From Methanosarcinaceae archaeon (GTDB taxonomy: Archaea; Halobacteriota; Methanosarcinia; Methanosarcinales; Methanosarcinaceae), in assembly GCA_030611265.1 (NCBI GenBank), contig JAUWQD010000016.1, positions 1-51,178 on the forward strand: a stretch of 51,178 nucleotides of DNA, given 5' to 3'. The notes under the pieces were generated by a model that saw nothing but the letters and a program-made list of their open reading frames with translations, made no database searches and had not been told where the DNA came from. Made by a program: the position numbers and the translations under genes. Shown here piece after piece: positions 2,930 to 45,313 of the stretch (position 1 is the first letter of the stretch; every line of letters starts with the position of its first letter).

Positions 2930-2946
2930 TTTTTAAGTGCCATGAA

Positions 2947-23946: not shown

Positions 23947-24909
23947 CTATACGTTCTTGATGCCAAATGACTCAAGCAAAATACCCGGGTTTATGCGACC
24001 GCTGGTAAATGATTTCTTGCTTGTTCTGTCATTGATAGTGATCTTTGCCGGTGCGAACATACCTGCATCGACTTTGAAGAAGTCGAAATCGGCTTCCTTG
24101 AATGTTGTGAAGAATGGCTTGCCGTAATCCTTTGATGTTATGGATGGTGCATTTTTAACGTGCTCTTCGAGTTTTTCCACATCATCGTATGCTACGGTAT
24201 AATAGGTCTCGCCACAGTAGATGATACAGTCATTGGTTGAACCCATGCATTTTGTGTCATCGCCAACAATAGGTGCAATAGGTGCAATTCCGAATCCGCT
24301 CTGGATCGTGTTGATGTCAAAGCCGATGGACTCCAACTTGTGAATTCCTGTTTCTACGATACGTGCAGATATCTGCACTGAACCTGCAATGGATGCAGTA
24401 GGTGCAACAGCGATGTAAACATTTTCAGTCTCAACATTGCTATGTTTTGCGATATATTCCACAACCTCTTCATCTGGAAGTGCGCTTGATTCCATAACAA
24501 GCACTGCACATTCGGAATCATCCTTGTAGCCGATCTTCTCATAGAGCTCCTTTGGTTTAAGACCAAGTGCTCTTGCCGGACCTGAACCCATACCGAAGTA
24601 TTTACCGACAGCGATTCTCCAGCCTGCATACTGTGAACCCATGCATGCGATGGTTGGATTGTCTGTGGAGACCTGAATTGCCGGCACAGGAAGACCATCG
24701 AGGTCGAACTTTGTGTAGCTTATCTCTGCAAGGTCTGCAAGGCACAGACGTGAGAGATACATTCCTGCATCGTAGCCACCGTCCATATTGACACCACAGT
24801 CAATAATGGTAGCACCGTTTGCAAGTTCCTTTGATTCTACCTTTAAATCTTCTTCCCAGTCGAGCATCTCATCAATTATACCTAATCCCTTTTCGTTGAC
24901 ACTTATCAT
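23947..24909 (-). CDS. mch: methenyltetrahydromethanopterin cyclohydrolase
   Basis: 320 aa. N-terminal MISVNEKGL...[24 protein letters not shown] matches the Mch family in length and motifs. Confidence 0.8.
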
Positions 24910-25436
24910 GTAATCACCATTAACTGATTAATAGTCTGTGATTTGGGATGATTCAGTTATATATTTGCCGATATTTATCGATTGGAAACTTAAGGTTGAG
25001 ACTTCTTTGATTGCAAATGGCTCTTTCATTTTTTGAGTGAATACATTCAGGAAAGATGGAATATTTGTATTTGTTTATTTATTCTTGACGCCGAGGCAAT
25101 CGCCGAATAAGAAAGAGCGATTACTCGCTCTCCCTCTTCTAAGAACCGGACTTGCGACTTCCACCACATCCGGCTCAAGCCTTTCATAACCCTTTTTGTA
25201 TCGGGCAGCAGTTAACAATTCAATGGCTGTATTGTTTTAACTTGACTTTTATTTTCAAATCGCATTGCATCAAGTGATATATTGAATTTTCAAATTTTTG
25301 TTGTATAGTGTATATACAGTACCCCCCAGTTTCCACTGCATTCAAAAACAACGATCAATCCATATGTATGCCGCAGCATATCGTTACATGTGATTTTTCA
25401 GAAAGATATAACAATACCAAAAACATATCCTATTTC

Positions 25437-26147
25437 ATGAAATTGCAAAAAATAGCCTGGGGAATTACAGGAGCTGGTCATTTTTTAAATGAGAGCTATG
25501 AGGTATTCAAAGAGATCAAATTAAAGGATCGAAATATTCGGATCAACACTTTTATTTCAAGTGCTTCGGAAGAGGTACTGCGTATGTACGGGCTTGAAAA
25601 TAAGCTTGTGAAATTATCGGGCGGAGATTATCTTGAAGAGATCTTCCTGGAAAGCGAACAGGGTAAGAGTTCGCCAAAAGCCGGCAGGTTCCTGCTTGGA
25701 AAATATGATGCCTTTTTTATCACTCCAGTGACATCCAATACTGCTTCAAAGATAGCATATGGGATTGCGGATTCACTGGTAACCAATGCAGTTGCACAGG
25801 CTGTAAAGGGAGGTGTGCCTGTATATGTTGTGCCGGTTGACGTTGCAGGTGTTGTGCGCTCAGAGATGCCGTATATGATCGACAGGGAATTTTGCAGGAA
25901 ATGTGAAGAGTGCATCCCAAGAGAAAAATGTCCGCATGGTGCTATCACAGACCAGATCGACCTGCTAAAGTGTAAGGGTTGCGGGATATGCAAGGAATGG
26001 TGCCCCTATGATGCGATCAAAGGCGGGGAGGTTGAACTCAGGGTGCGGGATGTGGATGAGAGGAATGTGCAGATAATTCGGGGTCTTGAGGGGATCACGG
26101 TACTTGAGAAGCCAGAACACATTTTGGAGTTATTTTTCCAGGATTGA
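25437..26147 (+). CDS. flavoprotein (AfpA/HFCD-like) fused to 2x[4Fe-4S] ferredoxin domain; DmrX-like dihydromethanopterin reductase candidate
   Basis: WGITGAGH flavin-binding motif. Two CxxCxxC...CP clusters near the C-terminus. Start taken at the internal ATG at 25437. Confidence 0.55.
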   Translation: MKLQKIAWGITGAGHFLNESYEVFKEIKLKDRNIRINTFISSASEEVLRMYGLENKLVKLSGGDYLEEIFLESEQGKSSPKAGRFLLGKYDAFFITPVTSNTASKIAYGIADSLVTNAVAQAVKGGVPVYVVPVDVAGVVRSEMPYMIDREFCRKCEECIPREKCPHGAITDQIDLLKCKGCGICKEWCPYDAIKGGEVELRVRDVDERNVQIIRGLEGITVLEKPEHILELFFQD

Positions 26148-26218
26148 TGACGATAGTGGGGTATGGTAGTAGCGGGTATGGTTATGATAGGTACATAAGG
26201 TGGGTAGTCAGTTCATCT

Positions 26219-26881
26219 TCAAAGTTGTCTGATGGTCTTTCTGCCAAACCCGACAAACATTTGTTTTATGACAAGGGACGTCGGAGTTTTTTTGCCTCCT
26301 GCGCGTACTTTTCCCTGTCGTATTGCCATAAGTACGGCATCGACCGTGTTTTCCTGTGCATCGATCTCTGTGTATGCCTGACCAACCATCTGCGGAGTGT
26401 GCGCATCGCTTCCACCGACCTGCGGCAGGTTGATCGATTCGGCAGCAATCTTTGCTTTTCTGTTAGAACGGTTGTCAAGGCAGCGTGAATTCAAGACCTC
26501 AACAGCATCAATATCAATCCCCTCTACAAATCCAATACCATGAGAGGAGAGTTTGAAAGGATGTGGTATGATGATCACTCCTCCAAGTTCCCTTGCTCGC
26601 TCGATGGTCTTTTCAGGTGAGAGGTGCGGTTCAATGTCCTCTTCGATCCCAAGGACAAGAATATGTCCTTTTGATGACGTTACTTCAATACCCGGGATGA
26701 CAATAAGGTCAGTACCAAGTTCTACTGCTCTTTTGGCGCATGCTATCCCGCCTTTAATCGTATCATGGTCGCAAACAGCGATACCGTCAAGACCATTCTT
26801 TTTAGCATGTGTGATTATGGAATCAATATCGGCATTGCTATCCTTTGAAAAATGGGAATGAACATGAAGATCAAATCGCAT
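26219..26881 (-). CDS. PHP-domain metal-dependent phosphoesterase
   Basis: MRFDLHVHSHFSKDS...DGIAVCDHD motifs of the polymerase/histidinol-phosphatase family. Confidence 0.7.
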   Translation of the reverse strand: MRFDLHVHSHFSKDSNADIDSIITHAKKNGLDGIAVCDHDTIKGGIACAKRAVELGTDLIVIPGIEVTSSKGHILVLGIEEDIEPHLSPEKTIERARELGGVIIIPHPFKLSSHGIGFVEGIDIDAVEVLNSRCLDNRSNRKAKIAAESINLPQVGGSDAHTPQMVGQAYTEIDAQENTVDAVLMAIRQGKVRAGGKKTPTSLVIKQMFVGFGRKTIRQL

Positions 26882-26971
26882 GCTAAAAAATAGCATTAGA
26901 ACTTAATATATATTTGGAATAGTTCTCACTTGAAAAAAGAAATGGTATTTGTATAGCTGTGTCAAGATAGT

Positions 26972-27041
26972 TGCGTAAATGAGATTATTCTATCTGAAAC
27001 TAAACCAATACAACTGCCGTAGGCGGCGCATTCCCATGCCA
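26972..27041. repeat. conserved ~70-nt intergenic element copy A, with GC hairpin CCGCC-gta-GGCGG
   Basis: About 76% identical to 38246..38315 (TGCGTAAATGA.AT..TTCTATCTGAAACTAAA..CAAT....C.GCCGTAGGCGGC). Confidence 0.5.
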
Positions 27042-27189
27042 TTGATTTGCTACAAAAATGTATGGTTCGATTCATTGGCCACAAAAAATGAGGTGGTTAT
27101 TGGTATGTGTTTGCAGTTTATTTTTGTATATGTCGGGATACATCGCCTGCGGCGGATTAACCCTTTGTTAAAAGTTGTTAAACAAACAC

Positions 27190-27816
27190 TCAATTTGTAT
27201 TCGGTTTTGCTTTCCGCCTTTCCTTAAAAATAAACCATGCTGCACCCAATACCTTCCAATTGGTCACGAACCTTAGAACTGCAAAAAGAAGTGAACTTAT
27301 CCTGAAACGAATGTTTGTGAAGACATGGAGGTCAAAGACCTCATCCTGAAATTGTGGACATATGGAAAAATTAAAAACGCTGCATCTTTTGATGAACAAA
27401 CCCTTCAAAGCATACAAAAAACCGGACAACATTCCGGTATCGGCAGGGTCAGAAAAACCATATTTGAGGTTGCAGGATATTTTCCTAAATTTAACGGCAC
27501 CAAAAACATCTTCGATGAATCTGATAATTGGTCTTTTTACGGTCTTCAAAACCCTTAACCAAACGGAAATGCCAATGCTGCTTGTTTTCTTTTTAGTTTT
27601 ATCTTTCTTTGGCTTTTCTTCTTTTTTCTCTTTTTTTGCCGCTTTTCCACTTCCAACCTTGAACTTATGCGACAATCCCATCCACTTGATGGTGATGTAT
27701 TGATCAACCCTGCCCCCTTCCGCCTTCAAATAAATGGTCACGTCAAATGCGGCAAACACCACTAACCCGAACAATAGAAGGATAATGGCTAACGCTACAT
27801 AAATAATAAGCAACAT
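27190..27816 (-). CDS. DUF2953/YtfI-like membrane protein
   Basis: N-terminal TM helix and lysine-rich linker. Adjacent to a GerW/YtfJ homolog, as in Bacillus ytfI-ytfJ. Confidence 0.45.
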   Translation of the reverse strand: MLLIIYVALAIILLLFGLVVFAAFDVTIYLKAEGGRVDQYITIKWMGLSHKFKVGSGKAAKKEKKEEKPKKDKTKKKTSSIGISVWLRVLKTVKRPIIRFIEDVFGAVKFRKISCNLKYGFSDPADTGMLSGFLYALKGLFIKRCSVFNFSICPQFQDEVFDLHVFTNIRFRISSLLFAVLRFVTNWKVLGAAWFIFKERRKAKPNTN

Positions 27817-27855
27817 GCATGTTGAAGTCTGATAGAGGCAGGATCGGTGGTTAGA

Positions 27856-28275
27856 TTATTCTTCTTCGCTCCCTTCGTGTTCCGCTTCTTCGGCGACTTC
27901 AGATTTCTCTTCCTTCTTCCCCATCTTGCTCTTGATCGATCTGATCTTATCGATGACCTCCGGCACGGATTCTATGATCTTGCCAAAATCGGTCTTGCCG
28001 GATATTGTGAGCAGGCGTGCTTCGTCTTCAGAGACCACAATGAATGCGATCGGCTCGATCTTCGCACCCGCACCGCCTCCGCCGCCAAAGCCCGTTTCAC
28101 CTTTGTCGCCTTTTCCTTCTCCGCCGCCGCTTCCAAATCCAAAGGACACTTTTGTGACCGGAATTATCGTCTTACCGGCAGCTTCCACAGGTTCACCGAT
28201 GACGGTCTTTGTGGTTACCAATCGTTCAAGTTCGCCTGTCACTTCTTTAATTATGTTCTCTACGCTCATATTCAC
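27856..28275 (-). CDS. GerW/YtfJ-family protein
   Basis: VTKVSFGFGSGGGEG glycine-rich core typical of YtfJ/GerW. Acidic C-terminal tail. Confidence 0.6.
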   Translation of the reverse strand: MNMSVENIIKEVTGELERLVTTKTVIGEPVEAAGKTIIPVTKVSFGFGSGGGEGKGDKGETGFGGGGGAGAKIEPIAFIVVSEDEARLLTISGKTDFGKIIESVPEVIDKIRSIKSKMGKKEEKSEVAEEAEHEGSEEE

Positions 28276-28333
28276 TCACTCCCATAGTTTGATGTAGATA
28301 CTATAACTATGAGATTTGTTCAGTAAAAAAAGT

Positions 28334-28440
28334 AACCCTCAAAAGTGAGGGTTTTAAAATATATGTAACGAACACTTTTCCAAAGTGTTCAAACGATCAC
28401 TTCTACGAAATGATCTAACGGATACTTCTACGAAGTATCC
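28334..28440. promoter_or_regulatory. cluster of four hairpins or palindromes between two minus-strand genes
   Basis: 28334-28353 is an 8-bp stem followed by a U-tract on the minus strand, terminator-like. 28370-28390 is GAACACTTT-tcc-AAAGTGTTC. 28395-28415 is a weaker hairpin. 28420-28440 is GGATACTTC-tac-GAAGTATCC. ACTTCTACGAA(A/G)T occurs twice. Confidence 0.45.
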
Positions 28441-28540
28441 TAATCAAACGCCTTCTTAAAAGGCTCAAGTTTCTCATGCAACTGCGCGATCATATCGCTG
28501 ATATCGTTATGCAGTTCATCTTGATTGATCGTGGTTTAAT

Positions 28541-28951
28541 TTAATCAATATGCTGTTCTATTATATTTTTAACTTGTACTGGATTTTTAACATGAAGCCA
28601 AATGAATTCAAAACCTGATCCTGTTCCAGAAGTATCTATGATGATATTTCCAAAATTGAATATTTTGCCGATTATTCCTTGCTGAACTCTCATCGAAGTT
28701 ATATGCTTAAAGGTTGAAGATTTAAAGTCTTCGGAAACAATACCTGTCCTGCCAATCACTCTTTTATCGGTTATTGCATATTTCATTGATGATTTATTTA
28801 GATATATTATTCCTATGACAATTATCGGTATTATTATTGTCCATATTGTAATTATGGCTAAAACTAAACCCCAAAAAAATCCAAGCCATGAGGGACTTCC
28901 TGTATATAGGATGTTTTCATCTTTTTGAATATGATTATCTATTGTCCACAA
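28541..28951 (-). CDS. membrane-anchored bacterial-type PH domain (bPH_2/YdbS-like) protein
   Basis: Two TM helices followed by a roughly 80-aa PH-like domain (YAITDKRVIGRTGIVSEDF...). Confidence 0.5.
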   Translation of the reverse strand: MWTIDNHIQKDENILYTGSPSWLGFFWGLVLAIITIWTIIIPIIVIGIIYLNKSSMKYAITDKRVIGRTGIVSEDFKSSTFKHITSMRVQQGIIGKIFNFGNIIIDTSGTGSGFEFIWLHVKNPVQVKNIIEQHID

Positions 28952-29376
28952 TTTAAATCACCTTTTTTATTAATTCAAGCATTTTATCAATTTATTTAAT
29001 ATATTAACTATTTTATATACCTTTTTATCTTAACAGTACTTTCGAACATCTCAACTTTTTATTGATTAAACAATTTGTAATTCAACTAAAAAATCAGAAT
29101 ATTCAATGTGCAATTGGAAGTACTGGCATTGGCTATGGAAAAAAACGATTCAAGTATTACTCCATACGGTATGGTCCCATTTTTTAGTTATCTTTTAAGT
29201 GCAGATGTTAGATGAAAATCGATTTTTTAAAAAAAGAAAATACATGGATTTGTAGTTTTATCAGTACCTTGCATATTCATTAAAATAATGCAATTTTAGG
29301 AAAATACGCCGCTTGCGGCGGTTGTTGCATCGGTTTTAGTTTTCCATAAACAAATATGATAATTGTAATCCAACAC

Positions 29377-31557
29377 TCACTGTGCATTGTCCATAAAGAA
29401 ATTCATAAGCGAATACTTCACCTTGCCAGGTTCAACATCAACAAACTCCGCCCTCTCATCCTCAGGAAATACTCCAAAAACAGAAAATTTCCCGAACTTC
29501 TTCTTCGAATCTGTCGAAAACCGACCATCAAGAAGTATCCGCACTCCATAATCGTCAGGCGAGCGCACTACTCTTCCCATTGCCTGCCTTATCTTGCGGA
29601 TTGTCGGTATCTGTATCGCATAATCCCATCCAGCGCCGTACTCGAACACATGGTCGTAGGCGGATTCCACTGCATTCATCCTGTCATTTAGTGCGGGATA
29701 TCCCACACCCACGATGATAACTGTACGCCCTCGTCCGTCACGGTAATCCACACCCTCGCTCAGCGTTCCCCACAGATACGAAACGAGGACAGCCTTGCCG
29801 CCGCTCTCTCCTATCCTGAAGAACTCTTCCCTGACATTCTGTGCGGACACCCCGACTTCGTCAAGGAACACAGGAACATCAACCTCTTTTTCCAGTTTAT
29901 TGAAATATCGCCTCGCTTCAAACGAACTCTGGAAAAAAATGATAACATTCCCATTTGACTGTTCAACGGAATCGAACAGCACCTGCTCGATGGCTTCCTT
30001 TGTCTGCGAATCGTCTCGGTTCTTTGCGAACAGCGGCGGAATGGCTGCTGCGATAGTTAGCCGTTTTTCCTCTGGAAATGATGTGGGGTACGCAATCTCG
30101 CATGTCTCACGTGTGATCCCAAGCGTGGCTTTGATCATATTGAAAGGTCGCAGGGTCGCCGACATCAGGATTGCCGAGAACACGGAATCAAACAACGGCT
30201 CTGTGACATTTTTCGGAATACAGGTGAACAGTTCGACCCGTCCGTATACCTCGTTGTTCATATCCCGCCTGACATTGAGGATCGGGTAGTAATTGAGATC
30301 ATTGGAAAGCACAAGGTATGATGAGAGAAAATCGGCGGAATAGCGGATATGCGACTTTTTCAAAATCTTGCTCAATCCTTTTTTATACTGGTCACGGTAG
30401 ATCTCATCGAGTTTTGCACCAAACTCACTTGCATTTGTCAGGAGTTCCTGAATTTCCTTTTCCTCTCCAAACCCCTTTTCCTTTGCCTGACGTAAAAATC
30501 GTGCGCGTACTATGTCATTACGTTCATACGGGTCGCTTATTCGTATATCGTACCATCTTTTTCCGACACGCTCTTTCTCTCCGAATTTAAACCTTGTATT
30601 ATATGTAGTCTGTATAACTTCCAGCAGAATCCTGAACAGGTTGTGCACACCTCCATCAGGCATTTCATCGATGTTCGCTTCAAGTTCTGCGATCGATTTT
30701 TCAACCGTGTGCTCGGTGATCGTTATGGAAGAATGCGAACGTGCTGCGGATTCGATATTGTGCGCTTCGTCGAGTATCAGTATTACATCCTGCGGGTCCC
30801 TGTCAAGCCATCCAAGAAATGTTGAAAATATATCGGCATTCAGGACATGGTGGTAATTGCATATCACGAGGTCTGCGTGTTTGATCTCACGTTTCATTAA
30901 CTCGTAGCCGCACATTCCAAGATCGAATGCATAATCGTTGACCTCTTCGGGTGAGCGGACATCTGCGAACAGCCATTTGCGGAATGTTTCGCTGTCCGAG
31001 CGCAGGACTTCATATAGTTCGTTACATGCCCGGTCGCGTACAGTCTTTATTTTCTCCTGCGAGGCGTTTATTTCACTGTTAAGTGCATCCCGAAGTGCGA
31101 TAAGCGACGGGTCATGTGTTCTTTTAAAATTTTCATTGGCAGATTTAATTTCCTGTCCTTTGAGATGAAGTTCACGCTCGATCTCAATGAGTTCAAAAGT
31201 ATTCTCGCGCTTGAGGCTACACTCCTCATAATCAACCTCGAGCGGACACATTGTGCTCTTGCCTTTGACAACAGCCACTTTCACGTCATTGGTCTTTTTG
31301 ATATCATGCGCTTCGTTTATGAACTGCACCATCTGCTGGTGAACATTGGTAGCGATCACAACGGTCTTTTTCAACTGTTTTCCCACATGCAGGGCCGGTG
31401 CGAGTGCACTTAGCGTTTTGCCTGTACCGCACGCTCCCTCAAAAAGTATCATCTCTTTTCGAAGCAGTGCTGAATGGATCGTATCCATCGCTTCTTCCTG
31501 ATTAGGGTAGCATGCTTCCTTTGTGAAATATTTGAAGTATCCGCTGTTTTTGCTCAT
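29377..31557 (-). CDS. XPD/Rad3-family DNA helicase (FeS-containing SF2 helicase)
   Basis: Walker A GACGTGKT. DEAH box LILDEAHNI. Cys-rich insert. C-terminal helicase motifs. Confidence 0.8.
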   Translation of the reverse strand: MSKNSGYFKYFTKEACYPNQEEAMDTIHSALLRKEMILFEGACGTGKTLSALAPALHVGKQLKKTVVIATNVHQQMVQFINEAHDIKKTNDVKVAVVKGKSTMCPLEVDYEECSLKRENTFELIEIERELHLKGQEIKSANENFKRTHDPSLIALRDALNSEINASQEKIKTVRDRACNELYEVLRSDSETFRKWLFADVRSPEEVNDYAFDLGMCGYELMKREIKHADLVICNYHHVLNADIFSTFLGWLDRDPQDVILILDEAHNIESAARSHSSITITEHTVEKSIAELEANIDEMPDGGVHNLFRILLEVIQTTYNTRFKFGEKERVGKRWYDIRISDPYERNDIVRARFLRQAKEKGFGEEKEIQELLTNASEFGAKLDEIYRDQYKKGLSKILKKSHIRYSADFLSSYLVLSNDLNYYPILNVRRDMNNEVYGRVELFTCIPKNVTEPLFDSVFSAILMSATLRPFNMIKATLGITRETCEIAYPTSFPEEKRLTIAAAIPPLFAKNRDDSQTKEAIEQVLFDSVEQSNGNVIIFFQSSFEARRYFNKLEKEVDVPVFLDEVGVSAQNVREEFFRIGESGGKAVLVSYLWGTLSEGVDYRDGRGRTVIIVGVGYPALNDRMNAVESAYDHVFEYGAGWDYAIQIPTIRKIRQAMGRVVRSPDDYGVRILLDGRFSTDSKKKFGKFSVFGVFPEDERAEFVDVEPGKVKYSLMNFFMDNAQ

Positions 31558-31610
31558 TGCAATACCTATGGTTTACGGCTACTTAAACAATGTTGATTGT
31601 CGGTATTCGT

Positions 31611-32282
31611 TCACTCGGCAGGTTTGACGACTGCCGTACCTTCCGCGATTATACGCTGTGTGGTTTTGTCGAATATCTTGATTGTTACGGTTGTGCCGGA
31701 CTTGAAGCCGTAGTTGTTTGAAGTGTTTGAAATGCCGTTCACAGATACGAATACGGATGAAGCATCAGTTCCATTTATACTATCATCACCGTTCAGGATA
31801 AGTTGTTCTCCGGTTGACCACAGACCATCATCAAGCGCAGCAGAGTTTGTTTTTATATATTTTTCATTAATTTTACCACTATATGCAAGGTTGGTGTATT
31901 TTACATTTGTATCTCCATTTTCCATCCAAGAGCTAACTCCTGCAACACCTACAATACCGATATGTGATTCTCCCTCTCCAGAAAGCACGATCATTGTAGA
32001 ATCAACTGCAAGCGAATCTCCTCCTTTATGCCGCAATTTGATATTAATATTATGATAATGTACAGGATTTGGAACTCCGCCAACCATCCCTTCAATCTCA
32101 ATAACCGCAGTAGGTGTTTTTGCAAAAGCGTTGTTGATACGTTCAACTGCATCATCATTATATACAGCAGCGACTGTTGCGACTGCCAGCACAAATGTCA
32201 ATAATACGATAAGCACCGCTCCAAATATTGGTGCAACCGCATTGTCGCTATCTCTGAATGTTGGTTTGCGCATGACTTTCAT
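31611..32282 (-). CDS. archaeal type IV pilin-like protein (DUF1628-type N-terminus)
   Basis: Class III signal-like N-terminus RDSDNAVAPIFGAVLIVLLTFVLAVA, then a Ser/Thr/Asn-rich beta domain. Confidence 0.55.
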   Translation of the reverse strand: MKVMRKPTFRDSDNAVAPIFGAVLIVLLTFVLAVATVAAVYNDDAVERINNAFAKTPTAVIEIEGMVGGVPNPVHYHNINIKLRHKGGDSLAVDSTMIVLSGEGESHIGIVGVAGVSSWMENGDTNVKYTNLAYSGKINEKYIKTNSAALDDGLWSTGEQLILNGDDSINGTDASSVFVSVNGISNTSNNYGFKSGTTVTIKIFDKTTQRIIAEGTAVVKPAE

Positions 32283-32426
32283 GGATGCGTAATCAGCGAC
32301 TTTGTATAAAAATAATTCGAATTGTGCATTAAAAAAACCACCGTGCTACATGCTGCACAATCAACCACATCTGCCGCAATATGCTGAAAAAACCATCATG
32401 AACAAAAGTTTTAGTTTCAATAAACA

Positions 32427-32511
32427 TCGATAGGTTTTTATCTAATTCGCATAATGCTATATTGAAAATTTCGGTAGATAATTTCGGTAGAAATTATCGA
32501 TATTATATCGA
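32427..32511. promoter_or_regulatory. tandem 12-bp direct repeat (AATTTCGGTAGA x2) and ATCGATA/TATCGA palindromes upstream of the ferredoxin gene
   Basis: Direct repeats at 32467-32478 and 32480-32491. Inverted repeat TCGATA-tta-TATCGA at 32497-32511. Confidence 0.35.
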
Positions 32512-32541
32512 ATAACATAATTACAAAAGGAGAATCTAATA

Positions 32542-32718
32542 ATGGTAGCAAAAGTAAACGCAGATGAATGTGTCGGATGTGGAACATGTGTGGACGAATG
32601 TCCAGCAGAAGCAATCTCAATGAACGATAACGACATCGCTGTTATAAACGCAGATGAATGTACCGACTGTGGTGCATGTGTAGATGCATGCCCAACCGAA
32701 GCAATCACAATGGAATAA
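32542..32718 (+). CDS. 2x[4Fe-4S] ferredoxin
   Basis: 58-aa product with two CxxCxxCxxxCP motifs. AAAGGAG ribosome-binding site. Not in the ORF track because it is under 60 aa. Confidence 0.75.
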
Positions 32719-32779
32719 GATCCTTATTCCATTTTATTTCTATTTTTAGTATCCATTCTTTTCTTTTTTTGAGGTAGCT

Positions 32780-33811
32780 ATGGCAAAGCCAATCAGAGCA
32801 GGTATATTAGGCGCCACCGGCGCAGTCGGACAGCGATTCATTCAGGCATTGGATAATCATCCATGGTTTGAGATAACATCACTTGCAGCATCAGAACGAA
32901 GTGCAGGAAAAACATACGACAATGCCGCAAACTGGAGGCTGGAGATCCCACTTCCGCAAAGTATAGCAGAAATGGATGTCGTTCCAGTTGACCCAACAAA
33001 AGTGGATGCCGATGTCGTGTTCTCGGCACTGCCATCAGAGAATGCCATGACTGTGGAAGCAGAGTTTGCAAAAGCAGGATTTGCAGTAGCAAGCAATGCA
33101 GCAGCATACCGTATGGAAGAAGATGTTCCTCTCGTTGTACCTGAAGTGAACGCCGACCATCTTGGTATGGTCGAAGTGCAGCAGGACAATCGCGGATGGG
33201 ATGGTTATATCATCACAAACCCGAACTGTTCGACAATAATGATGGTCATGTCACTCAAACCCCTCATGCAATTCGGGCTTGATAATGTCACAGTTGCGAC
33301 CATGCAGGCAATTTCAGGCGCGGGGTATGATGGTGTATCCTCAATGGCAATTCTTGATAACATCGTTCCCTACATAGGCGGCGAAGAAGAAAAAATGGAG
33401 ATCGAACCACAAAAACTCCTCGGGGAATTCGATGGTGCACAATTCATAGACGCCGATCTCACTGTAAGTGCAGCATGTCACAGGGTGCCTGTAATGGACG
33501 GGCACACCGAAGCGATATGGGCTACCATGAGTGATGATCCAACGCCCGAAGATGTAAGAAATGCATTCCTCAATTTCAATCCGAATCTTGGCGACCTGCC
33601 AACCGAACCTGAACAGGCATTGATAGTCCATGATCAACCGGACCGACCACAACCACGTCTTGACAGGAATTTAGGCGAAGGTATGAGTGTAAGTGTAGGA
33701 CGAATTCGTGAAGGCATACGCTATGTCGCAATGGGCCACAACACCGTTAGGGGTGCAGCAGGTGCAAGCGTACTCAATGCAGAACTCCTTCACAAGATGG
33801 GTAAATTGTGA
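32780..33811 (+). CDS. asd: aspartate-semialdehyde dehydrogenase
   Basis: N-terminal GILGATGAVGQRF NAD(P)-binding motif. Catalytic-cysteine region NPNCSTI. 343 aa. Confidence 0.85.
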   Translation: MAKPIRAGILGATGAVGQRFIQALDNHPWFEITSLAASERSAGKTYDNAANWRLEIPLPQSIAEMDVVPVDPTKVDADVVFSALPSENAMTVEAEFAKAGFAVASNAAAYRMEEDVPLVVPEVNADHLGMVEVQQDNRGWDGYIITNPNCSTIMMVMSLKPLMQFGLDNVTVATMQAISGAGYDGVSSMAILDNIVPYIGGEEEKMEIEPQKLLGEFDGAQFIDADLTVSAACHRVPVMDGHTEAIWATMSDDPTPEDVRNAFLNFNPNLGDLPTEPEQALIVHDQPDRPQPRLDRNLGEGMSVSVGRIREGIRYVAMGHNTVRGAAGASVLNAELLHKMGKL

Positions 33812-34587
33812 ACAAGGATAATAATAATATGAGGCTTACTGCTCTGTTGTTTGTTCTATTAATCACAGTTACGCTTATGACAAATACAGCAGTAGCCCAA
33901 GCCCCAGCCACAACAGCACCAATTACTATCTTTGAATTGGTGCTAATACCTCTTGAAGAACTGGATGCTGATCCGGTAACTTACGACGGGACGGTAGCCT
34001 ATCGCAAGATCAGTGTCACAGGAACACTTTCTGAATTGAGTTCCAATCGTGGAAAAATTACCCAGGATTCACATTCCCTGTTAATCGACACCACCGAAGA
34101 ACAGTTGTTTGCAGGATTTAATGTGGGCGATGGGATTAAACTAACAGGTGTCTTTTATCATAAACAGATAGGTGATGATCTATTCATCCCAAACTATGTT
34201 TTACACTATCCGGTCGAGGATCTGGATGATGTCGAAATAAGTGAAATTGTACAAGATCAAGAATCGTTCAATGGAAAAAAGGTCACTGTTATGGGCAACC
34301 TTTCAAGTATTGAGGAATCCATGGGGCGATATGTTCTCTATGTTGCAGACCCTGAAACAGACGATGAACTGAAGATTATGTTCTATGGCGTCTCTGACCT
34401 TGAATCCGGTACAATTATCGAAGTTTCCGGTCTTTACAATGGCGGTATCCTGCACAGTGAGGATATGGGGAGATATTATCCTCCGATGTCCCTGAAAACA
34501 ATTATTCCCGGATTTTCAGGATTTGCGGCATTGGCAGTGTTTGTCATACTTACGATACTTTTTAAACGTGAAAACCATAATGGATAG
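33808..34587 (+). CDS. secreted protein with PGF-CTERM archaeosortase sorting signal
   Basis: Signal peptide. C-terminal IIPGFSGFAALAVFVILTILFKRE (PGF motif, TM helix, basic tail). ATGA overlap with asd. Confidence 0.6.
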   Translation: MNKDNNNMRLTALLFVLLITVTLMTNTAVAQAPATTAPITIFELVLIPLEELDADPVTYDGTVAYRKISVTGTLSELSSNRGKITQDSHSLLIDTTEEQLFAGFNVGDGIKLTGVFYHKQIGDDLFIPNYVLHYPVEDLDDVEISEIVQDQESFNGKKVTVMGNLSSIEESMGRYVLYVADPETDDELKIMFYGVSDLESGTIIEVSGLYNGGILHSEDMGRYYPPMSLKTIIPGFSGFAALAVFVILTILFKRENHNG

Positions 34588-34595
34588 AGATTATT

Positions 34596-35300
34596 ATGTT
34601 AGTGGTTATATCAGTAGGCGGATCAATTCTCGCCAAAGACTTAAACTCTGATCGTTTTATCTCTTATGCAAATGCGCTTGTTGCTCTTGCAAAAGAGCAC
34701 AGGTTAGTGGTTGTAACGGGTGGCGGCGTGGCTGCAAGAGATTATATCAACGTAGCTCGCAGTGTGGGTGCCAATGAGGTTGCATGTGATTTTATAGGGA
34801 TCGAAGTGACAAGATTGAATGCACAATTGCTAATCTCAGCACTTGGGGACAATGCATTCCCCGAACCTCCCCGAACATACAAGGAAGCCGAAGCTGCACT
34901 CACAAGCGGTAAGATCGTGGTCATGGGGGGCGTAATTCCTGGACAGACTACGGACGCAGTATCTGCAATACTGGCAGAGTATATGGGTGCAGATCTGATG
35001 ATAATAGCAACATCCGTGGATGGTGTATACTCCGCAGACCCGACAACGGATCCTGATGCTGTCAAGTTCGAAAAAATGACTGCAAAGGAACTGGTCAATA
35101 TTGTAATGTCAACTGAAATGAAGGCTGGCTCCAAATCCCCTGTTGACCCGCTCGCAGCAAAGATCATTGAACGATGTAAGATCGAGACAATTGTCATGGA
35201 CGGCAACGACCCTGTGGCAGTTTCAGAAGTAATCATGCAAGAAGGAGTTGAATCCGAACCGGTAACAGGCGTTCATCTTGGAACGCGCATTATCGGTTAG
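34596..35300 (+). CDS. pyrH: UMP kinase (archaeal type)
   Basis: VVISVGGSIL...VVVTGGG amino-acid-kinase-family motifs. 234 aa. Confidence 0.85.
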   Translation: MLVVISVGGSILAKDLNSDRFISYANALVALAKEHRLVVVTGGGVAARDYINVARSVGANEVACDFIGIEVTRLNAQLLISALGDNAFPEPPRTYKEAEAALTSGKIVVMGGVIPGQTTDAVSAILAEYMGADLMIIATSVDGVYSADPTTDPDAVKFEKMTAKELVNIVMSTEMKAGSKSPVDPLAAKIIERCKIETIVMDGNDPVAVSEVIMQEGVESEPVTGVHLGTRIIG

Positions 35301-35332
35301 ATCATATTTCATTTTATGCCTGAGGATAAAAC

Positions 35333-36397
35333 ATGAAACATAAAACACGTCTTATAAGTCTTCTCACTTTGTCAATTCTTTTACTAACAACATCTGCCGT
35401 TGGTGCATCTCCAATGGATGTGCAGGTCACTGATATTTTCTCTGACGAAAAACTGTGCGATGCAACTATTCATTTCAACGAACCAACAGACAATGTTGAG
35501 TTGGTGTTTGAAATGCTATATCGCGGGGATGTTGTAGAATCGAGAACAGTAAAGTTAGATTCCGTATCTGCGGGAGGCACAACAAAGATGATTTTGTGGG
35601 AAAATGAACTGCAAGAGAAGTCATACACAGCAAACGTGAGTGTGTACAACAGCGACAAACTTCTCACACGTGATTCGTACCAATTTACTCACAACACTGT
35701 GGCAATGCCCAGATTCAAGATCGTGGATTTCAGTGCAGACAGTTCAAAATCATCAATATTGGTAAGTCCGGGAAGTGTAACCAATCCCGGTGTTGCGGAC
35801 ATTGATATTAAATTGTTCAAAAGCAGTGACCTTGTATACAGCGAAACTACCAATAATGTGGCAATACTGGCAACAAAAATTATTGATACAAACTGGCCGA
35901 TATTGTTGCAAAGCGGTTCCGATTACACTGCTGTTGCAAGGGTTTACTCACACGACCCTGAAATTACCACTGCGTACATGTCAAGATTCACTGCATTGGA
36001 AAACGTTGAGATAATTGATGCTGATATTGAATTGGATGAGTACGGTGCAAGCATCACGATAATCGGGATGTCGCAGGTTCCATTCGAAGGCACTGTGCGC
36101 ATTGTTTTATCAGGCAACGACGATCCAATTGTCTTTGAAGAAGATACAGAGATATTGACAATTGACAGAGAAGACACGGTAGGCATTATGTGGGATGGTA
36201 TGCCTGGTGGGGATTACAATATCAATGTTGATATTTTGACTTCAAAAGGCGTTGTACTTGATAGTTATGAAACCGTAATCCGTATGCCTGAGCCGTTTGT
36301 TGTAGGGATTGAACCGGAAAAGGAAACACCCGGCTTTGGCATCATTGGAGGACTGGCAGTCCTGATCACTGTTGGTTTATTTCTTCGCCGCAAGTAG
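35333..36397 (+). CDS. secreted protein with PGF-CTERM sorting signal
   Basis: Signal peptide. C-terminal ETPGFGIIGGLAVLITVGLFLRRK. Confidence 0.6.
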   Translation: MKHKTRLISLLTLSILLLTTSAVGASPMDVQVTDIFSDEKLCDATIHFNEPTDNVELVFEMLYRGDVVESRTVKLDSVSAGGTTKMILWENELQEKSYTANVSVYNSDKLLTRDSYQFTHNTVAMPRFKIVDFSADSSKSSILVSPGSVTNPGVADIDIKLFKSSDLVYSETTNNVAILATKIIDTNWPILLQSGSDYTAVARVYSHDPEITTAYMSRFTALENVEIIDADIELDEYGASITIIGMSQVPFEGTVRIVLSGNDDPIVFEEDTEILTIDREDTVGIMWDGMPGGDYNINVDILTSKGVVLDSYETVIRMPEPFVVGIEPEKETPGFGIIGGLAVLITVGLFLRRK

Positions 36398-36406
36398 GGG
36401 AATTGG

Positions 36407-37522
36407 ATGCTTGACATAATTATTCGCAATGCTACCCAGCGAAAAGTTAGAACAGGGCTTACAATTACAGGTATAGCACTTGGCATCTTCGCACTGGTGG
36501 TAATGGGTGCGATGTCAGAGAATTTCAATCAGACATTTGAAAAGTCCATGAGTCTTACGAGTGAGTCGATACGTGTTTTTCCTGAGATCGGGATGTTTGG
36601 GGGAGGTTTGACCACCGGTAAGGTTGCTGAGGTAAAACGGGTGCCGGGTGTCAGGGATGCGTATGGTTTGATAATGACATCGTTTGAGGAAGGTCATGGT
36701 TCGATGGGCGGGAAGCAGGTTATGGGAGTTCCACCTGAAAAATCCAAATTGGCTGTGAATCCTGTAAAACTTCAATCAGGAAGATTTTTGCAGCCCGGAG
36801 ATAAGTATCTCACAGTGGTGGGTACAAGCATAGCAGGCGAGTTCGATCTGCAGGTCGGCAGCAAGATCGAGATCCATGATAAGAATTTCACGGTTGTTGG
36901 GATACTGGAATATACCGGTTCATTTTTCGATAGTGTTGCAACAATACCGCTTGAAACTGCACAAGACCTTTATAATTTTGACAATTCGATCTCATATATA
37001 TTCGCGATTGCACAGGATGGTGTTGATGAGGATCTGCTTGCAAAGCGTATCGAATTCAGTGTGAAAGGTACAAGTACAATTTCACCAAGCGAACTGCGTG
37101 AACAGGCAAGCCAATCACTTTTGATCTTCAGTGTTATTACTATCAGTTCAGCCCTTCTTGCAGCGATCATTGGCGGGTTGAGTGTTATGAACACGATGCT
37201 CATGTCTGTTATTGAGAGGACGAGGGAGTTCGGTATACTAAAGGCAATGGGTGCCGAAACAAAAGATATCCTTCTAATGACGCTGGGCGAAGCGGCAATT
37301 ATGGGAGTTGCAGGCGGATTGTTCGGGATTGGTCTTGGCAGTGCATTGACCTATGCACTGAACAGTTGGCTATTGACAAAAGGTATTATCCTTTTCCTGA
37401 TAACGCCGCGTTTGATCGTGGTTGCGATGTTGTTTGCTACATTGATCGGAATGGTATCCGGTTTGTACCCTGCCTACCGTGCCGCGAAGATGAGTCCAAT
37501 GGAGGCGCTACGCCATGGATGA
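36407..37522 (+). CDS. ABC transporter permease, FtsX/MacB-like (DUF214)
   Basis: N-terminal TM helix, large extracytoplasmic domain, then three C-terminal TM helices. Confidence 0.75.
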   Translation: MLDIIIRNATQRKVRTGLTITGIALGIFALVVMGAMSENFNQTFEKSMSLTSESIRVFPEIGMFGGGLTTGKVAEVKRVPGVRDAYGLIMTSFEEGHGSMGGKQVMGVPPEKSKLAVNPVKLQSGRFLQPGDKYLTVVGTSIAGEFDLQVGSKIEIHDKNFTVVGILEYTGSFFDSVATIPLETAQDLYNFDNSISYIFAIAQDGVDEDLLAKRIEFSVKGTSTISPSELREQASQSLLIFSVITISSALLAAIIGGLSVMNTMLMSVIERTREFGILKAMGAETKDILLMTLGEAAIMGVAGGLFGIGLGSALTYALNSWLLTKGIILFLITPRLIVVAMLFATLIGMVSGLYPAYRAAKMSPMEALRHG

Positions 37523-38207
37523 TAGTATTATTCTAGAAGTGGAGGGCCTTTCCAAGACATATATGCAGGGCAAGATCCCTGTATATGCGCTGCGTAGTGT
37601 TTCACTATCCGTGAAAAAAGGGGAAATGGTTGCGATCATGGGTCCGAGCGGTTCCGGTAAATCTACCCTGATGGCTCTTATAGGCTGTCTGGAAAAAGCA
37701 ACGAGTGGCAAGATAGTTATTGACGGTGTGGATGTTACCTCCGTGCCTGACAGGCGGCTTCCGAGGATCAGGCGGGAAAAACTCGGTTTCGTGTTCCAGC
37801 ATTATAATCTCCTGACCGCGCTCTCGGCAATCGGTAATGTTGAACTCGCGATGCGATTTTCCAATGTTTCAAAACGAGAGCGTATTGAGCGCGCGGAAAG
37901 TCTTTTGGGAAAACTCGGACTTGGCGATCGTCTCAAACATAAACCAACTGAACTGTCAGGCGGGGAACAGCAGCGCGTTTCAATTGCAAGAGCAATAGCG
38001 AACAGACCTGCAATTGTTCTTGCGGACGAGCCGACAGGAGAGGTGGACAGTAAGACGCGTGATGCCATCATCGGGATATTCGAGAGCCTGCGCGCGCGTG
38101 GTCAGACTGTTATTATTGTAACACACGACCAGTATGTTGCAGATCATTGTGACAGGGTGATACGTATTGTTGATGGTGGGATTGCGGATGGTGGGGAAGG
38201 TGTGTAA
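37515..38207 (+). CDS. ABC transporter ATP-binding protein (MacB/LolD-like)
   Basis: Walker A GPSGSGKST. Signature LSGGEQQRV. Walker B VLADEPTG. Overlaps the permease stop. Confidence 0.85.
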   Translation: MDDSIILEVEGLSKTYMQGKIPVYALRSVSLSVKKGEMVAIMGPSGSGKSTLMALIGCLEKATSGKIVIDGVDVTSVPDRRLPRIRREKLGFVFQHYNLLTALSAIGNVELAMRFSNVSKRERIERAESLLGKLGLGDRLKHKPTELSGGEQQRVSIARAIANRPAIVLADEPTGEVDSKTRDAIIGIFESLRARGQTVIIVTHDQYVADHCDRVIRIVDGGIADGGEGV

Positions 38208-38245
38208 TTTAATAAATCTTATTTATATAGATATTGTAAAATGAC

Positions 38246-38315
38246 TGCGTAAATGAAATGGTTCTATCTGAAACTAAAAACAATGCGACCGCCGTAGGCG
38301 GCACGTTTCATGCAT
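38246..38315. repeat. conserved ~70-nt intergenic element copy B
   Basis: See copy A at 26972..27041. Contains the hairpin CCGCC-gta-GGCGG. Confidence 0.5.
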
Positions 38316-38422
38316 ACCAGTTTTAATAAGCTAAATTGTTGGCAAAGTGTTTTTCACACTTGCAGGATGTTTGTCGATGGCGTATTGATTCGCCATTAAA
38401 AATTATAAATAAATATGAAAAA

Positions 38423-38644
38423 TCACAACAGTTTGTTAAAATCTTCTACAGAAATCTCTGCTTGCTTGAGAATCTTTCGTAAAGTCCCTTTCTTTACGGG
38501 ATTATGAAGGGGCACGGAAAACACTCTGTAGTCTTTTTTGAGTACAACATGGTCGCCTTTTGCCATTCTGGCTTCGAATCCTATTTTTACAAGGGCTTTT
38601 ATGACCTTCTTTCCAGAAACAACAGGCAATTTATTATTATTCAC
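38423..38644 (-). CDS. hicA: HicA toxin (type II toxin-antitoxin system)
   Basis: GKKVIKALVKIGF...KGDHVVLKK...KKGTLRKILKQAEIS matches the HicA/YcfA family. Confidence 0.75.
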   Translation of the reverse strand: MNNNKLPVVSGKKVIKALVKIGFEARMAKGDHVVLKKDYRVFSVPLHNPVKKGTLRKILKQAEISVEDFNKLL

Positions 38645-38849
38645 TTACTTCCACCGCTGAAACTTCGGCGAAATTTGCCAATTCTCTTGCTTCTTCATTT
38701 ATAACTTCAAGCACCAGCCCGATTGCTTCTTTTATATTTGCAAGAGCATCCTCTTTTGTATCGCCTTGACTAATCGCTCCGGGAAGTTCCAAGCATTGAA
38801 CTGAATAGCCGCCCTCTTCTTCCTCTTCAAGTATTACGGTGTATTTCAT
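38637..38849 (-). CDS. hicB: HicB antitoxin
   Basis: MKYTVILEEEEEGGYSVQCLELPGAISQGDTKEDALANIKEAI matches the HicB family. Overlaps hicA by 8 nt. Confidence 0.7.
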   Translation of the reverse strand: MKYTVILEEEEEGGYSVQCLELPGAISQGDTKEDALANIKEAIGLVLEVINEEARELANFAEVSAVEVSE

Positions 38850-38954
38850 TATGATTCCTCATATTTATTGTACACAAAATTGGTGTATTTTTTTGTAATA
38901 ATTCCAATTAGAGTTTAAACAATTTAGTCATTTAAAATTGTTGGTGCCATGTTT

Positions 38955-39881
38955 TCACACCATCTCGCCAACATCCCACCCCAGATGCTCCTTAATAATG
39001 GTATAAGCCATCCCGGGTGGCACTGCGCCGACATCCGTAATTATCAGGTCAATGTATTCCGGTGGCGTAATATCGAAAGCAGGATTCCTGACATTCAGTT
39101 TTGGCAAACCTGCAAGTGTCTCCTTGTCAATAACCTCATCAATTGATCGCTCCTCAATTTCAATGAATTCTCCAAGTATTGTATTCGGACTGAATTTGTA
39201 AGTCTCGGCTGCTGTGAGGAAGTTCGTCCGCGCTTCGTGTGCTGCGAGTGCGAGTTGGGATGTCCCGATCTTGTTCACAAGCGCGCCGTTTACGGCAATA
39301 GCATCCGCACCGACTATAACGGTATCAACCTCTTTCATGCAGTACCGTGCGGCAGAGTCCACAATAAGTGTAGTTGGAATCCCATAGTCAAGAAGGTGTT
39401 TGCTGGTAAGAAGTCCCTGTCGTCTTGGTCGGGTCTCGGTAGCGATTACCGAGATGTCCTTGCCCTGGTCAAAAGCAGTTGTGATGACTGAAAGTGCTGC
39501 ATTGGAATTGCAGTGGGTCATAATCACATCACCGTCACGGATGCGTCTGGCACCGATCTCACCGATCTTTTGGAGTGCATCACCAGCCTGTTTGATGAAC
39601 CTCTCAGCGTTATTGATGATCTCTGCTCTTGCTTCTTCCACATCCGCAGAAGTGTATCGTGATGTCAGTCTGACCGCATTTGGAAGTGAAACTGCGGTCG
39701 GTCGGGTGTCCACAAGCAGTTTTGCGGCATTTTCGATCAGGCGGCTGAATTCCTTGATCGATCCCGCCTCAAGATTCTCTGCATAATCACGAAGTGCGAC
39801 CGCAGCGGCTGTTGCGATTCGACCTGCGCCGCGTATTTCCATGGTGTTGATCTTTTCTGCGGTTTCTTGTAACTGGTTCAT
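38955..39881 (-). CDS. eIF-2B alpha/beta/delta-family protein (ribose-1,5-bisphosphate isomerase / aIF-2BII-like)
   Basis: Family motifs IMTHCNS, GADAIAVNG and VGAVPPG. Confidence 0.7.
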   Translation of the reverse strand: MNQLQETAEKINTMEIRGAGRIATAAAVALRDYAENLEAGSIKEFSRLIENAAKLLVDTRPTAVSLPNAVRLTSRYTSADVEEARAEIINNAERFIKQAGDALQKIGEIGARRIRDGDVIMTHCNSNAALSVITTAFDQGKDISVIATETRPRRQGLLTSKHLLDYGIPTTLIVDSAARYCMKEVDTVIVGADAIAVNGALVNKIGTSQLALAAHEARTNFLTAAETYKFSPNTILGEFIEIEERSIDEVIDKETLAGLPKLNVRNPAFDITPPEYIDLIITDVGAVPPGMAYTIIKEHLGWDVGEMV

Positions 39882-42911: not shown

Positions 42912-43516
42912 CGCTTGACGTAATTGCAGCAGCCACTGTTGAGCATCTGGTTCTTGTATATACCACCTTATTTTTGAGCATTGCTATTGCGATCCCTCTT
43001 GCTTTCGCTTCCCTCTATAGCGAAAGACTGGCATTTGTGATTATGAGATTTGCCAATCTGGCTCAGGCAGTACCCAGTTTTGCAGTTGTTGCGATCGTGG
43101 TACCCCTGATCGGGATCGGTTTCACTCCTGCTGTGATAGCGATCATGCTGCGGGCTTTGTTGCCGATCGTGAAGAATACGTACATTGGATTGTCGAGCAT
43201 TGACCCCCAGTTGATAGATTATGCAAAAGGCATCGGCCTGACGGACTGGCAGATAAACCGTCATATAAGATTGCCAAACGCTTACCCTCCAATGTTCGCA
43301 GGAATTAAATTTGCAGCCATCCTGGCTAACAGTATTGCAGTACTGACTGCAATTATCGGAAGCGGAGGCTTGGGTGAACTGGTCTTTGAAGGACTTATCA
43401 GTTTTAGTACGGAAAGGCTTTTGGCAGGGGCATTGCCGGCTATTGGGCTTGCTTTGTTTTTGGATATGTCATTTACAGCATTGGAGAAGAGGTTGACTTC
43501 GGGGCAGCCACGATAG
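42905..43516 (+). CDS. osmoprotectant ABC transporter permease (OpuCD-like)
   Basis: Paralogous permease overlapping the upstream gene. Its last ~250 nt recur twice downstream. Confidence 0.75.
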   Translation: MVTLDVIAAATVEHLVLVYTTLFLSIAIAIPLAFASLYSERLAFVIMRFANLAQAVPSFAVVAIVVPLIGIGFTPAVIAIMLRALLPIVKNTYIGLSSIDPQLIDYAKGIGLTDWQINRHIRLPNAYPPMFAGIKFAAILANSIAVLTAIIGSGGLGELVFEGLISFSTERLLAGALPAIGLALFLDMSFTALEKRLTSGQPR

Positions 43517-45061: not shown

Positions 45062-45313
45062 GCCACGCCAAACGCTTACTCCCCAATGTTTGCAAAAATA
45101 AAATTTGCAGCCATCCTGACTAACAGTATTGCAGTACTGACTGCAATTATCGGAAGCGGAGGATTGGGTGCACTGGTCTTTGAAGGACTTATCAGTTTTA
45201 GCACAGAAAAGGTCATGGCAGGGGCACTGCCGGCGATTGGGTTTGCCTTGTTTTTGGATATGTCATTTACGGCACTGGAGAAGAGGTTGACTTCGAGGCA
45301 GGGTGGGGAGTGA
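45062..45313 (+). repeat. duplicated 3' fragment (~250 nt) of the opuCD-like permease gene; attachment-site-like repeat, copy 2
   Basis: About 90% DNA identity to 43268..43516. Encodes MFAKIKFAAILTNSIAVLTAIIGSGGLGALVFEGLISFSTEK...LEKRLTSRQGGE. No upstream gene body. Confidence 0.75.

Follow-up and report, generated by a model that had tools for sequence, protein, structure and literature searches.

The window analysed here, 51,178 nucleotides of DNA from a Methanosarcinaceae archaeon, carries two similar non-coding sequences that each contain a GC-rich hairpin, and the question they raise is whether they represent a small-RNA gene family, a terminator or attenuator module, or a miniature mobile element, the three candidate roles named in a sequence-only reading of this locus. 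The host is related to ANME-3 and has a G+C content of ~41%; genes in the window, among them those for methenyl-H4MPT cyclohydrolase, Trm5, Trm1, an aIF-2B family protein and an archaeal pilin, suggest a methanogen-type archaeon, and the flanking proteins have their closest named relatives in uncultured Methanosarcinaceae, followed by Methanococcoides at 69%.

We find the two sequences exactly where they had been placed, at 26972-27041 and 38246-38315, and their likeness is far above chance both in a repeat search and with a family HMM. The repeat search of the window pairs 26937-27004 with 38211-38278 at 76% identity and 27002-27032 with 38277-38307 at 81%, the offset between the two pairings amounting to one indel of one base, and the family HMM scores the copies, hereafter w1 and w2, at E=8e-32 and E=8e-27, respectively. 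Within the window the 17-mer TTCTATCTGAAACTAAA occurs only in w1 and w2. The proposed length of ~70 nt falls short: similarity begins ~27-35 nt further upstream, and the unit spans ~100 nt from an upstream end, TATTTGTATAG, located at 26946 in w1 and 38220 in w2, to an end near CCATTGA. The full extents are 26945-27045 (w1) and 38219-38320 (w2), both on the plus strand and both of a long form that we call A-type. In w1 the TATTTGTATAG end is followed by a 45-nt insert with an ATG at 26979, an ATACAAC box, the hairpin GCCG-TAGG-CGGC (27016-27027) and the tail GCATTCCCATGCCATTGA; the hairpin of w2 lies at 38291-38302. Two folding registers are possible, CCGCC-GTA-GGCGG or GCCG-TAGG-CGGC. w1 is 83-84% identical to copies on contigs L038 and L040 (ANME-3-like MAG). 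It lies between the start of a PHP-domain gene (minus strand), whose protein has no exact match on record, and the end of a DUF2953 gene (minus strand), and w2 follows an ABC ATPase gene (plus strand) and faces the end of hicA (minus strand); no plus-strand gene lies downstream of either. A hicAB toxin-antitoxin pair, 38423-38849 on the minus strand, adjoins w2.

The element had been described as present twice, and the window in fact holds five to six related copies, all within 25-38.4 kb, as judged from profile searches and alignments. The additional members are shorter. w3 (29299-29357, minus strand) is a short variant reading ATATTTGTTTATGG-AAAACTAAAACCGATGCAAC-AA-CGCCG-CAAG-CGGCG-TATTTTCC, found by nhmmer both with the full model (E=1e-4) and with the hairpin module (E=4e-6), and it lies directly after an XPD-like helicase gene, ~20 nt (29358-29376) past the stop. 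w4 (27135-27189, minus strand) is a short B-type copy, inverted, ~90 nt after w1, with the hairpin CGCC-TGCG-GCGG at 27144-27155; it is 72% identical to the B-type copy of L042 over 60 nt, its HMM match is weak and its orientation is assigned with moderate confidence; w1 and w4 form a tail-to-tail doublet. w5 (25059-25101, plus strand) comprises a B-type 5' module (TATTTGTATTTGTTTA...GACGCCGAGGCAATC) whose hairpin half has given way to the 3' end of an opposite-strand group II intron, and was assigned by alignment with the intact B-type copies L032:2470-2580(-) and L042:3650-3760(-). A remnant beside w2 (38380-38416, minus strand) is likewise a B-type 5' module (GCGTATTGATTCGCCATTAAAAATTATAAATAAATAT), 81% identical over 37 nt to the B-type copy of L042, and is also present in L064 and L065, both without w2. 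Doublets of this kind occur at five loci (w1/w4, w2/remnant, L042, L046 and L064), an A-type copy being followed 60-190 nt on by an inverted short copy. All copies of the family are intergenic, in either orientation.

What the family shares is a set of modules rather than a fixed sequence. The GC hairpin had been called invariant, which holds between w1 and w2 but not across the family, where the loop (TAGG, CAGG, CAAG, CATA) and the stem flanks differ; a GC stem of 5-6 bp is found in every copy. The block TTCTATCTGAAACT, taken to be shared unchanged, reads TTTTACCTGAAACT in L054 and TTCTATTCAAAACT in L064, variants seen in copies that were found without searching for that block. Most of the extra copies came from exact-pattern or protein-word searches, so conservation of the searched blocks looks inflated, and the apparent invariance of TTCTATCTGAAACT is due to how the copies were found. 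Common to all variants are the TATTTGTWTA end, an A(C/T)(A/G)CAA(C/T) box, a CGCCG-loop-CGGCG hairpin and an ATTCC tail, which in the family takes the form ATTCC(C)A...CAYYGA. The long A-type form carries an extra insert of ~45 nt, GCTGTGGTAAGATAGCTGCGTAAATGAGATTGTTCTATCTGAAACT, that is missing from the short variants, and the length variants overall have conserved termini and a variable middle, giving a modular unit of 45-110 nt. A single unit has no terminal inverted repeats (TIRs), its ends TATTTGTATAG and CCATTGA not being inverted; in A(+)/B(-) doublets the 10-nt TATTTGTWTA stands at both outer ends, and nothing else is shared there. The hairpin loops at 27016-27027 and 38291-38302 (CCGTAGGCGG) have a T in w1 and w2 where copies from ANME-3 MAGs have a C, and this T creates a TAG in the frame of a short open reading frame, MRLFYLKLK; TAG can encode pyrrolysine in Methanosarcinaceae.

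Outside the window, a genome scan with an exact two-block pattern, one genome per species, matched L031, L032, L033, L038, L040 and L042, which come from Methanosarcinaceae MAG HMMV2, Ca. Methanovorans (ANME-3) HMMV and MAG E21. Nine further matches lie in bacterial genomes, ~5 chance matches being estimated for the pattern. A scan of JGI metagenomes gave one contig, L046, and the 30 exact matches to the 17-mer in viral contigs all lack the hairpin (30/30) and are ascribed to chance. Among the matches inspected, the repeat was found only in ANME-3-like genomes and metagenomes, to which it appears to be restricted, and literature searches found no published description of it.

Comparison of close relatives reveals that copies come and go. 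Presence or absence at the same site is seen among relatives whose flanking protein is 92-99% identical. w2 lies in a 186-nt block (38190-38375) that is missing at the orthologous site of L064 and L065 (flanking ATPase 92% identical) and is bordered by an imperfect direct repeat, GATGGTGGGATTGCGGAT (38172-38189) and GATGGCGTATTGAT (38376-38389), single-copy in L064; this direct repeat, the sole candidate for a target-site duplication, is unusually long at 14-18 nt and encloses ~85 nt of non-family sequence. L064 in turn has an insert of ~310 nt between its helicase and pilin genes where the window has an empty 54 nt (31557-31611), consisting of an A-type copy without the ATG, reading TTCTATTCAAAACT, and an inverted hairpin module, with ambiguous insert ends. 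w3 is found in L056, whereas the corresponding gene end of L058 and L064 has no copy, and the sequence past this site is different from genome to genome. At the orthologous PHP loci of related genera (~80% nucleotide identity) the PHP promoter is kept and w1 is missing, homology ending at ~26941, which is the edge of w1. In L060 and L062 the 3' half of w2 has been lost together with hicA via an 8-nt microhomology, CTGAAACT, and hicB is left alone.

Copies of the repeat sit at synteny breakpoints, a coincidence that makes them probable drivers of rearrangement at the local scale in uncultured methane-cycling archaea; recombination between repeat copies, and between copies of the intron, would reshuffle the neighbourhood. 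Assemblies of the ANME-3-like lineage fragment at these points because of the repeats. The near-identical metagenome contigs L052 and L053 start inside w1, as expected if the repeat defeats assembly; together with L032 they start in, or no more than ~45 nt from, a copy, and in L040, L042 and L054 a copy lies ~100-560 nt from the contig end.

Among the proposed roles, these findings favour the miniature mobile element: the repeat is multi-copy, confined to one lineage and present or absent between relatives, and it has sharp ends, length variants and a habit of breaking assemblies, to be set against the lack of classical TIRs and of a partner transposase. We consider it probable that w1, w2 and their kin are a lineage-specific dispersed repeat of the MITE/REP kind in ANME-3-like Methanosarcinaceae that serves as a landing site for an intron. 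With MITEs, and with the Correia elements of Neisseria and the BOX elements of Streptococcus, it shares a non-coding sequence of ~100 nt, presence or absence among strains, modular length variants, a possible promoter-like sequence and the breaking of assemblies; it differs from them in that a single unit has no TIRs and no short, regular target duplication. As in MITEs, multiple copies go together with presence or absence between close relatives; no autonomous element with matching ends turned up in the window or the fetched loci, and no partner transposase or other enzyme is linked to the repeat there. The IS1634-like elements (DUF4277) of the window, with their inverted repeats, have ends unrelated to it. 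The resemblance to bacterial REP and REPIN sequences, which are mobilised by RAYT, is a short GC-rich palindrome with conserved flanks at multiple intergenic or gene-end sites, either orientation, frequent inverted doublets and service as a specific insertion target for other mobile elements. Unlike these, however, the present repeat is longer (45-110 nt), modular and archaeal, has a conserved AT-rich far end, and is linked to no RAYT or IS200/IS605 TnpA gene; no RAYT (Y1 HUH) transposase was found among the window ORFs scanned with Pfam.

Two further identities were considered. An integron attC site is rejected, as a single unit forms no long hairpin and the scanned ORFs include no tyrosine recombinase; there is no cassette array, and ATACAAC and GTTGTAT bear only a loose likeness to attC core sites. 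Decay of one gene, or of an insertion-sequence end, is hardly credible as the origin of the copies. The start codon and first nine codons are common to all A-type copies, as such a history would predict, but a profile search of 5.8 billion proteins yielded only two ORFs of 34-39 aa and no longer family, similarity stops sharply ~100 nt from the start in unrelated flanks, and neither the insertion-sequence ends of the window nor the intron resembles the repeat. The scenario of a shared degraded gene, which the sequence-only reading had named among the outcomes that would undo it, is not supported, the protein search having turned up no larger gene family.

A classical 111-nt MITE, quite different in appearance from the present repeat, is found at L061:1950-2060 inside the w2 orthologue of one strain; it has TIRs GAGGCTGTCTAACAATT and AATTGTTGGACAGCCTC, is flanked by TAGA and has no copy in the window.

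The hairpin of the repeat is where the intron enters. In L032 (ANME-3 HMMV) a full-length 2.2-kb group II intron sits exactly at the hairpin base, on the opposite strand of the element: the A-type 5' module runs up to ...CAAC, where the reverse complement of the intron 3' end begins, and the hairpin module GCCGCAGGCGGCGCATTTCA (L032:2339-2362) lies beyond the ~2.2-kb intron. The intron ORF encodes a 516-aa RT/maturase with RVT_N, RVT_1 and GIIM domains. Read on the intron strand, the 5' exon ends ...GCGCCGCCTGCGGCG and the 3' exon begins GTTGAAGTGGTTTTAGTTTCAG..., colinear with uninterrupted copies, so that the hairpin terminates the 5' exon and the remainder of the repeat forms the 3' exon. 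The same colinear junction is occupied three times: by the full-length intron in the A-type copy of L032, by a truncated intron in the A-type copy of L033, and by a truncated intron in the B-type w5 (25101/25102). The window fragment (25102-25249, minus strand) is 5'-truncated, retains the post-ORF region and domains V and VI, with ~70 nt besides these two domains, abuts w5 and lies just upstream of the mch gene. Its domains V-VI match Rfam RF00029 at 25102-25178 on the minus strand (50.5 bits, E=5e-7), and the 3'-terminal 140 nt of the L032 intron match it at 97% identity (window 25101-25240), the last base of the intron falling at 25102. The ~143-nt fragment of L033 has the same 5' break as the window fragment and a different upstream flank. 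The window fragment is missing from L051 (flanking protein 92% identical), and contig L053 ends at the fragment start.

Base pairing between intron and target supports the hairpin base as the insertion junction. IBS1 corresponds to the 3' arm of the hairpin, GCGGCG, and pairs 6/6 with the EBS1 loop CGCCGC (intron nt 272-277), which is closed by a conserved stem; within the first ~500 nt of the intron, nothing else complements the last six exon nucleotides perfectly. A second intron, in L055, is 74% identical; its 5' exon finishes with GCGCG, which belongs to another GC hairpin (CGCGCTATGCGCG), and the same loop reads CGTGCT and pairs 5/6 with its own exon end, so that the EBS1 loop follows the target sequence in two related introns. 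For EBS2-IBS2, GGGTGG (nt 93-98) can pair with CCGCCT with two wobbles, unusually far from EBS1, and has no match in L055. The closest PDB relative of the intron protein is the T.el4h CL1/IIB maturase (6ME0), at E=1e-153 versus 8e-29 for GsI-IIC, and domain V reads GAGCCGG..., with an AGC triad. From these sequence features we conclude that the hairpin junction is the insertion site, and on the best-supported reading the homing site, of a CL1/IIB-like group II intron. The element itself is not part of the intron, the two having no similarity. Both full-length introns begin with a base other than G (L032:2336, CUGUGAC; L055:12528, UUACGAC; canonical GUGYG), which calls their splicing competence into question.

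RmInt1 of Sinorhizobium reportedly homes into a multi-copy insertion sequence, ISRm2011-2. The present intron is like RmInt1 in having an intron protein without an endonuclease domain, a natural target in a repeated non-essential element and EBS/IBS recognition; the target of RmInt1, however, is an insertion sequence with a transposase gene, whereas the target here is a ~100-nt non-coding repeat whose 5' exon is a stem-loop. RmInt1 as a group II intron is described in PMC4615759. Class C (IIC) introns take as targets either terminator stem-loops, behind which they insert, or integron attC sites (PMC4424553), and the intron described here likewise lies immediately 3' of a GC stem-loop, but it differs in its AGC triad, CL1/IIB-like protein, full 6-nt EBS1 pairing and lack of integron context; assignment to class C is thus rejected, the triad being AGC rather than CGC. 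A preference of this intron family for stem-loops is possible, since the L055 intron follows a different GC hairpin. The nested group II introns of Methanosarcina acetivorans home into other introns (PMC4424553). These are also CL-type introns of archaeal Methanosarcinaceae, with non-coding 'exons' and with truncated or ORF-less derivatives present, but they target introns, whereas the target here is a separate small repeat dissimilar to the intron. Among archaea, this pair is a clear example of a small dispersed repeat being the target of a group II intron; copies of the repeat would offer the intron many harmless landing sites, and via such targets it can multiply without damage to genes.

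An intron lying directly after the hairpin, in the hairpin-first direction, is also what one would expect if the stem-loop were a terminator. The terminator or attenuator role is at best weakly supported, with copies in both orientations relative to their neighbours and the T-run after the stem mostly missing. In its most explicit form, the opposite-strand GC hairpin followed by U-rich GGUUUUAGUUUCAG would end transcription of the upstream gene, as a gene-end terminator or insulator, which we judge quite improbable; equally improbable is the corollary that the intron inserts after the hairpin as class C introns, which target terminator stem-loops, do in bacteria (PMC4424553). On the minus strand w1 and w2 do lie 110-165 nt downstream of the DUF2953 and HicA genes, and w3, just past the helicase stop, has TATTTTCC after its stem. 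Copies nevertheless occur in both orientations, the co-oriented upstream gene being on the other strand at w2, L038 and L046; w5 and w1 adjoin gene starts; conservation over ~100 nt is more than termination needs; the T-tracts are only 3-5 nt long and 10-15 nt from the stem; the module is missing at the orthologous gene ends of relatives; and the intron is not of class C. Archaeal termination depends on oligo-T rather than on hairpins, which counts further against this role. A separate hairpin-plus-T-run motif, AAAAAAGTAACCCTCAAAAGTGAGGGTTTTAAAATAT, is found at two gene ends, 28326-28362 and 51085-51121, and looks like a terminator.

A resident intron with a reverse transcriptase raises another way in which the repeat could spread, namely as a SINE-like non-autonomous retroelement copied via RNA by the intron enzyme, and we regard this as very unlikely. 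Reverse-transcriptase copying would account for a long target duplication and for variably shortened copies: the w2 insert is flanked by its 14-18 nt direct repeat, the hairpin end is kept and the other end progressively lost in L042, w3, L055:10229-10247 and L064:3915-3936, and elements co-occur with the intron and its 5'-truncated fragments. The ends of element and intron, however, share no sequence; a self-transcribed RNA would leave out the putative promoter, yet the copies contain it; the short variants resemble internal deletions with both ends kept rather than truncations; and the candidate duplication is the only one.

The promoter-like end of the repeat is central to the remaining alternative, in which the copies are small transcription units: a TATA box, TTTGTATA, would drive a leaderless transcript of ~70-110 nt starting at or near the AUG, either a trans-acting sRNA with an unstructured UUCUAUCUGAAACUAAA seed and the GC hairpin as 3' stabiliser, or the mRNA of a micro-protein, MRLFYLKLK...QPPQAAD (34-40 aa). 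In A-type copies the first T of the TATA-like sequence lies 31 nt upstream of the ATG, a spacing that, by the usual rule for archaeal promoters, fits a leaderless start. The reading frame is open for 34-40 codons in L038, L040, L042, L046 and L054; codon 3 is TTA, TTG or CTG, all Leu, L054 has two synonymous changes (TTT, TAC), and a 6-nt insertion in L046 preserves the frame. Both w1 and w2 face the 3' end of a convergent gene, so an antisense RNA is possible. The TATA motif is, however, degenerate in L033 and L038 and absent from L042, an oligo-T terminator after the hairpin is missing in most copies, and the element is non-syntenic among relatives. w1 is frameshifted, in w2 the loop change places a TAG at codon 15, the L064 copy is without the ATG, and w3, w4 and w5 lack the whole segment. 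L040 and L046 differ by ~6 non-synonymous and 2 synonymous changes, with no synonymous excess; the synonymous-looking changes elsewhere stem from searches that required those residues or bases; and the two matches returned from the 5.8 billion proteins are both these same ORFs. As a protein gene the forward micro-ORF is accordingly rejected, on the frameshift in w1, the stop in w2 and the missing ATG in L064, as is a reverse-strand micro-ORF (M.WE.AACGGC..FSFR), which is broken in L038 and L042 and frameshifted in w1.

Nor do we find the signature of a structured RNA, and the small-RNA gene family put forward for w1 and w2 is not borne out. Rfam 15, searched at the gathering score and at E<=10 over 24500-39500, gives no match on the element, and a scan for tRNA and tmRNA genes gave none. 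Single sequences fold no better than shuffled ones on either strand (z -0.9 to +0.3), and apart from a weak helix of 5 bp the RNAalifold consensus contains only the GC hairpin and has 0 compensatory pairs; across ~15 copies no covariation of stem bases is seen, so that the compensatory changes which would have marked a conserved stem are missing. Long-hairpin folding of doublets is suggestive at most, with z=-2.8 in L042 and only -1.4 for the window doublet. A C/D box was rejected by eye, AAUGAGA not being RUGAUGA and the spacing being wrong. With no structure signal, no covariation and no conservation at orthologous sites, small transcription units are an unlikely reading of these copies; transcription from the TATA-like end of the repeat is nonetheless conceivable. 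The repeat is most likely selfish, non-autonomous DNA rather than a small-RNA gene, and annotation of ANME-3-like genomes should treat it as a repeat family to be masked instead of calling sRNA or micro-protein genes at its copies.

Beyond a dispersed repeat of the MITE/REP kind that happens to receive an intron, repeat and intron might together form a two-level parasitic system, in which the element spreads by a mechanism undescribed in archaea and the intron has specialised on its hairpin; we hold this stronger proposal to be rather unlikely. Spread would then proceed either by hairpin-directed single-strand transposition, as for REPINs, or by copying with the intron reverse transcriptase, as for SINEs, and the TATA box of the element would also seed new antisense or leaderless transcripts at gene ends.

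Several other repeats were noted in the course of this analysis. At two unrelated loci, L040:440-560(-) and L046:4595-4690, the element is followed by an extra block of ~95 nt bracketed by the direct repeat CCAYGAAAAT, for which L042 has a single site; this block may be another small insertion family. Two DUF4277 ORFs of the window (IS1634/IS4-type transposase N-terminal domain) lie at 1220-2929 on the plus strand and 2947-3882 on the minus strand, with inverted repeats at 594-636/2945-2987 and a 51-nt, 92% identical inverted repeat at 3935-3985/51027-51077, and the segments 594-3985 and 51027-51077 look like nested or neighbouring insertion sequences. Finally, a 235-nt direct repeat occurs three times, at 43273-43507, 45067-45301 and 46158-46392 (the latter two 91% and 60% identical to the first), lying where a low-GC block (44-51 kb, GC 0.31-0.34) starts and inside it; the ORFs of this block have no Pfam match, and it may be a foreign or defence island.
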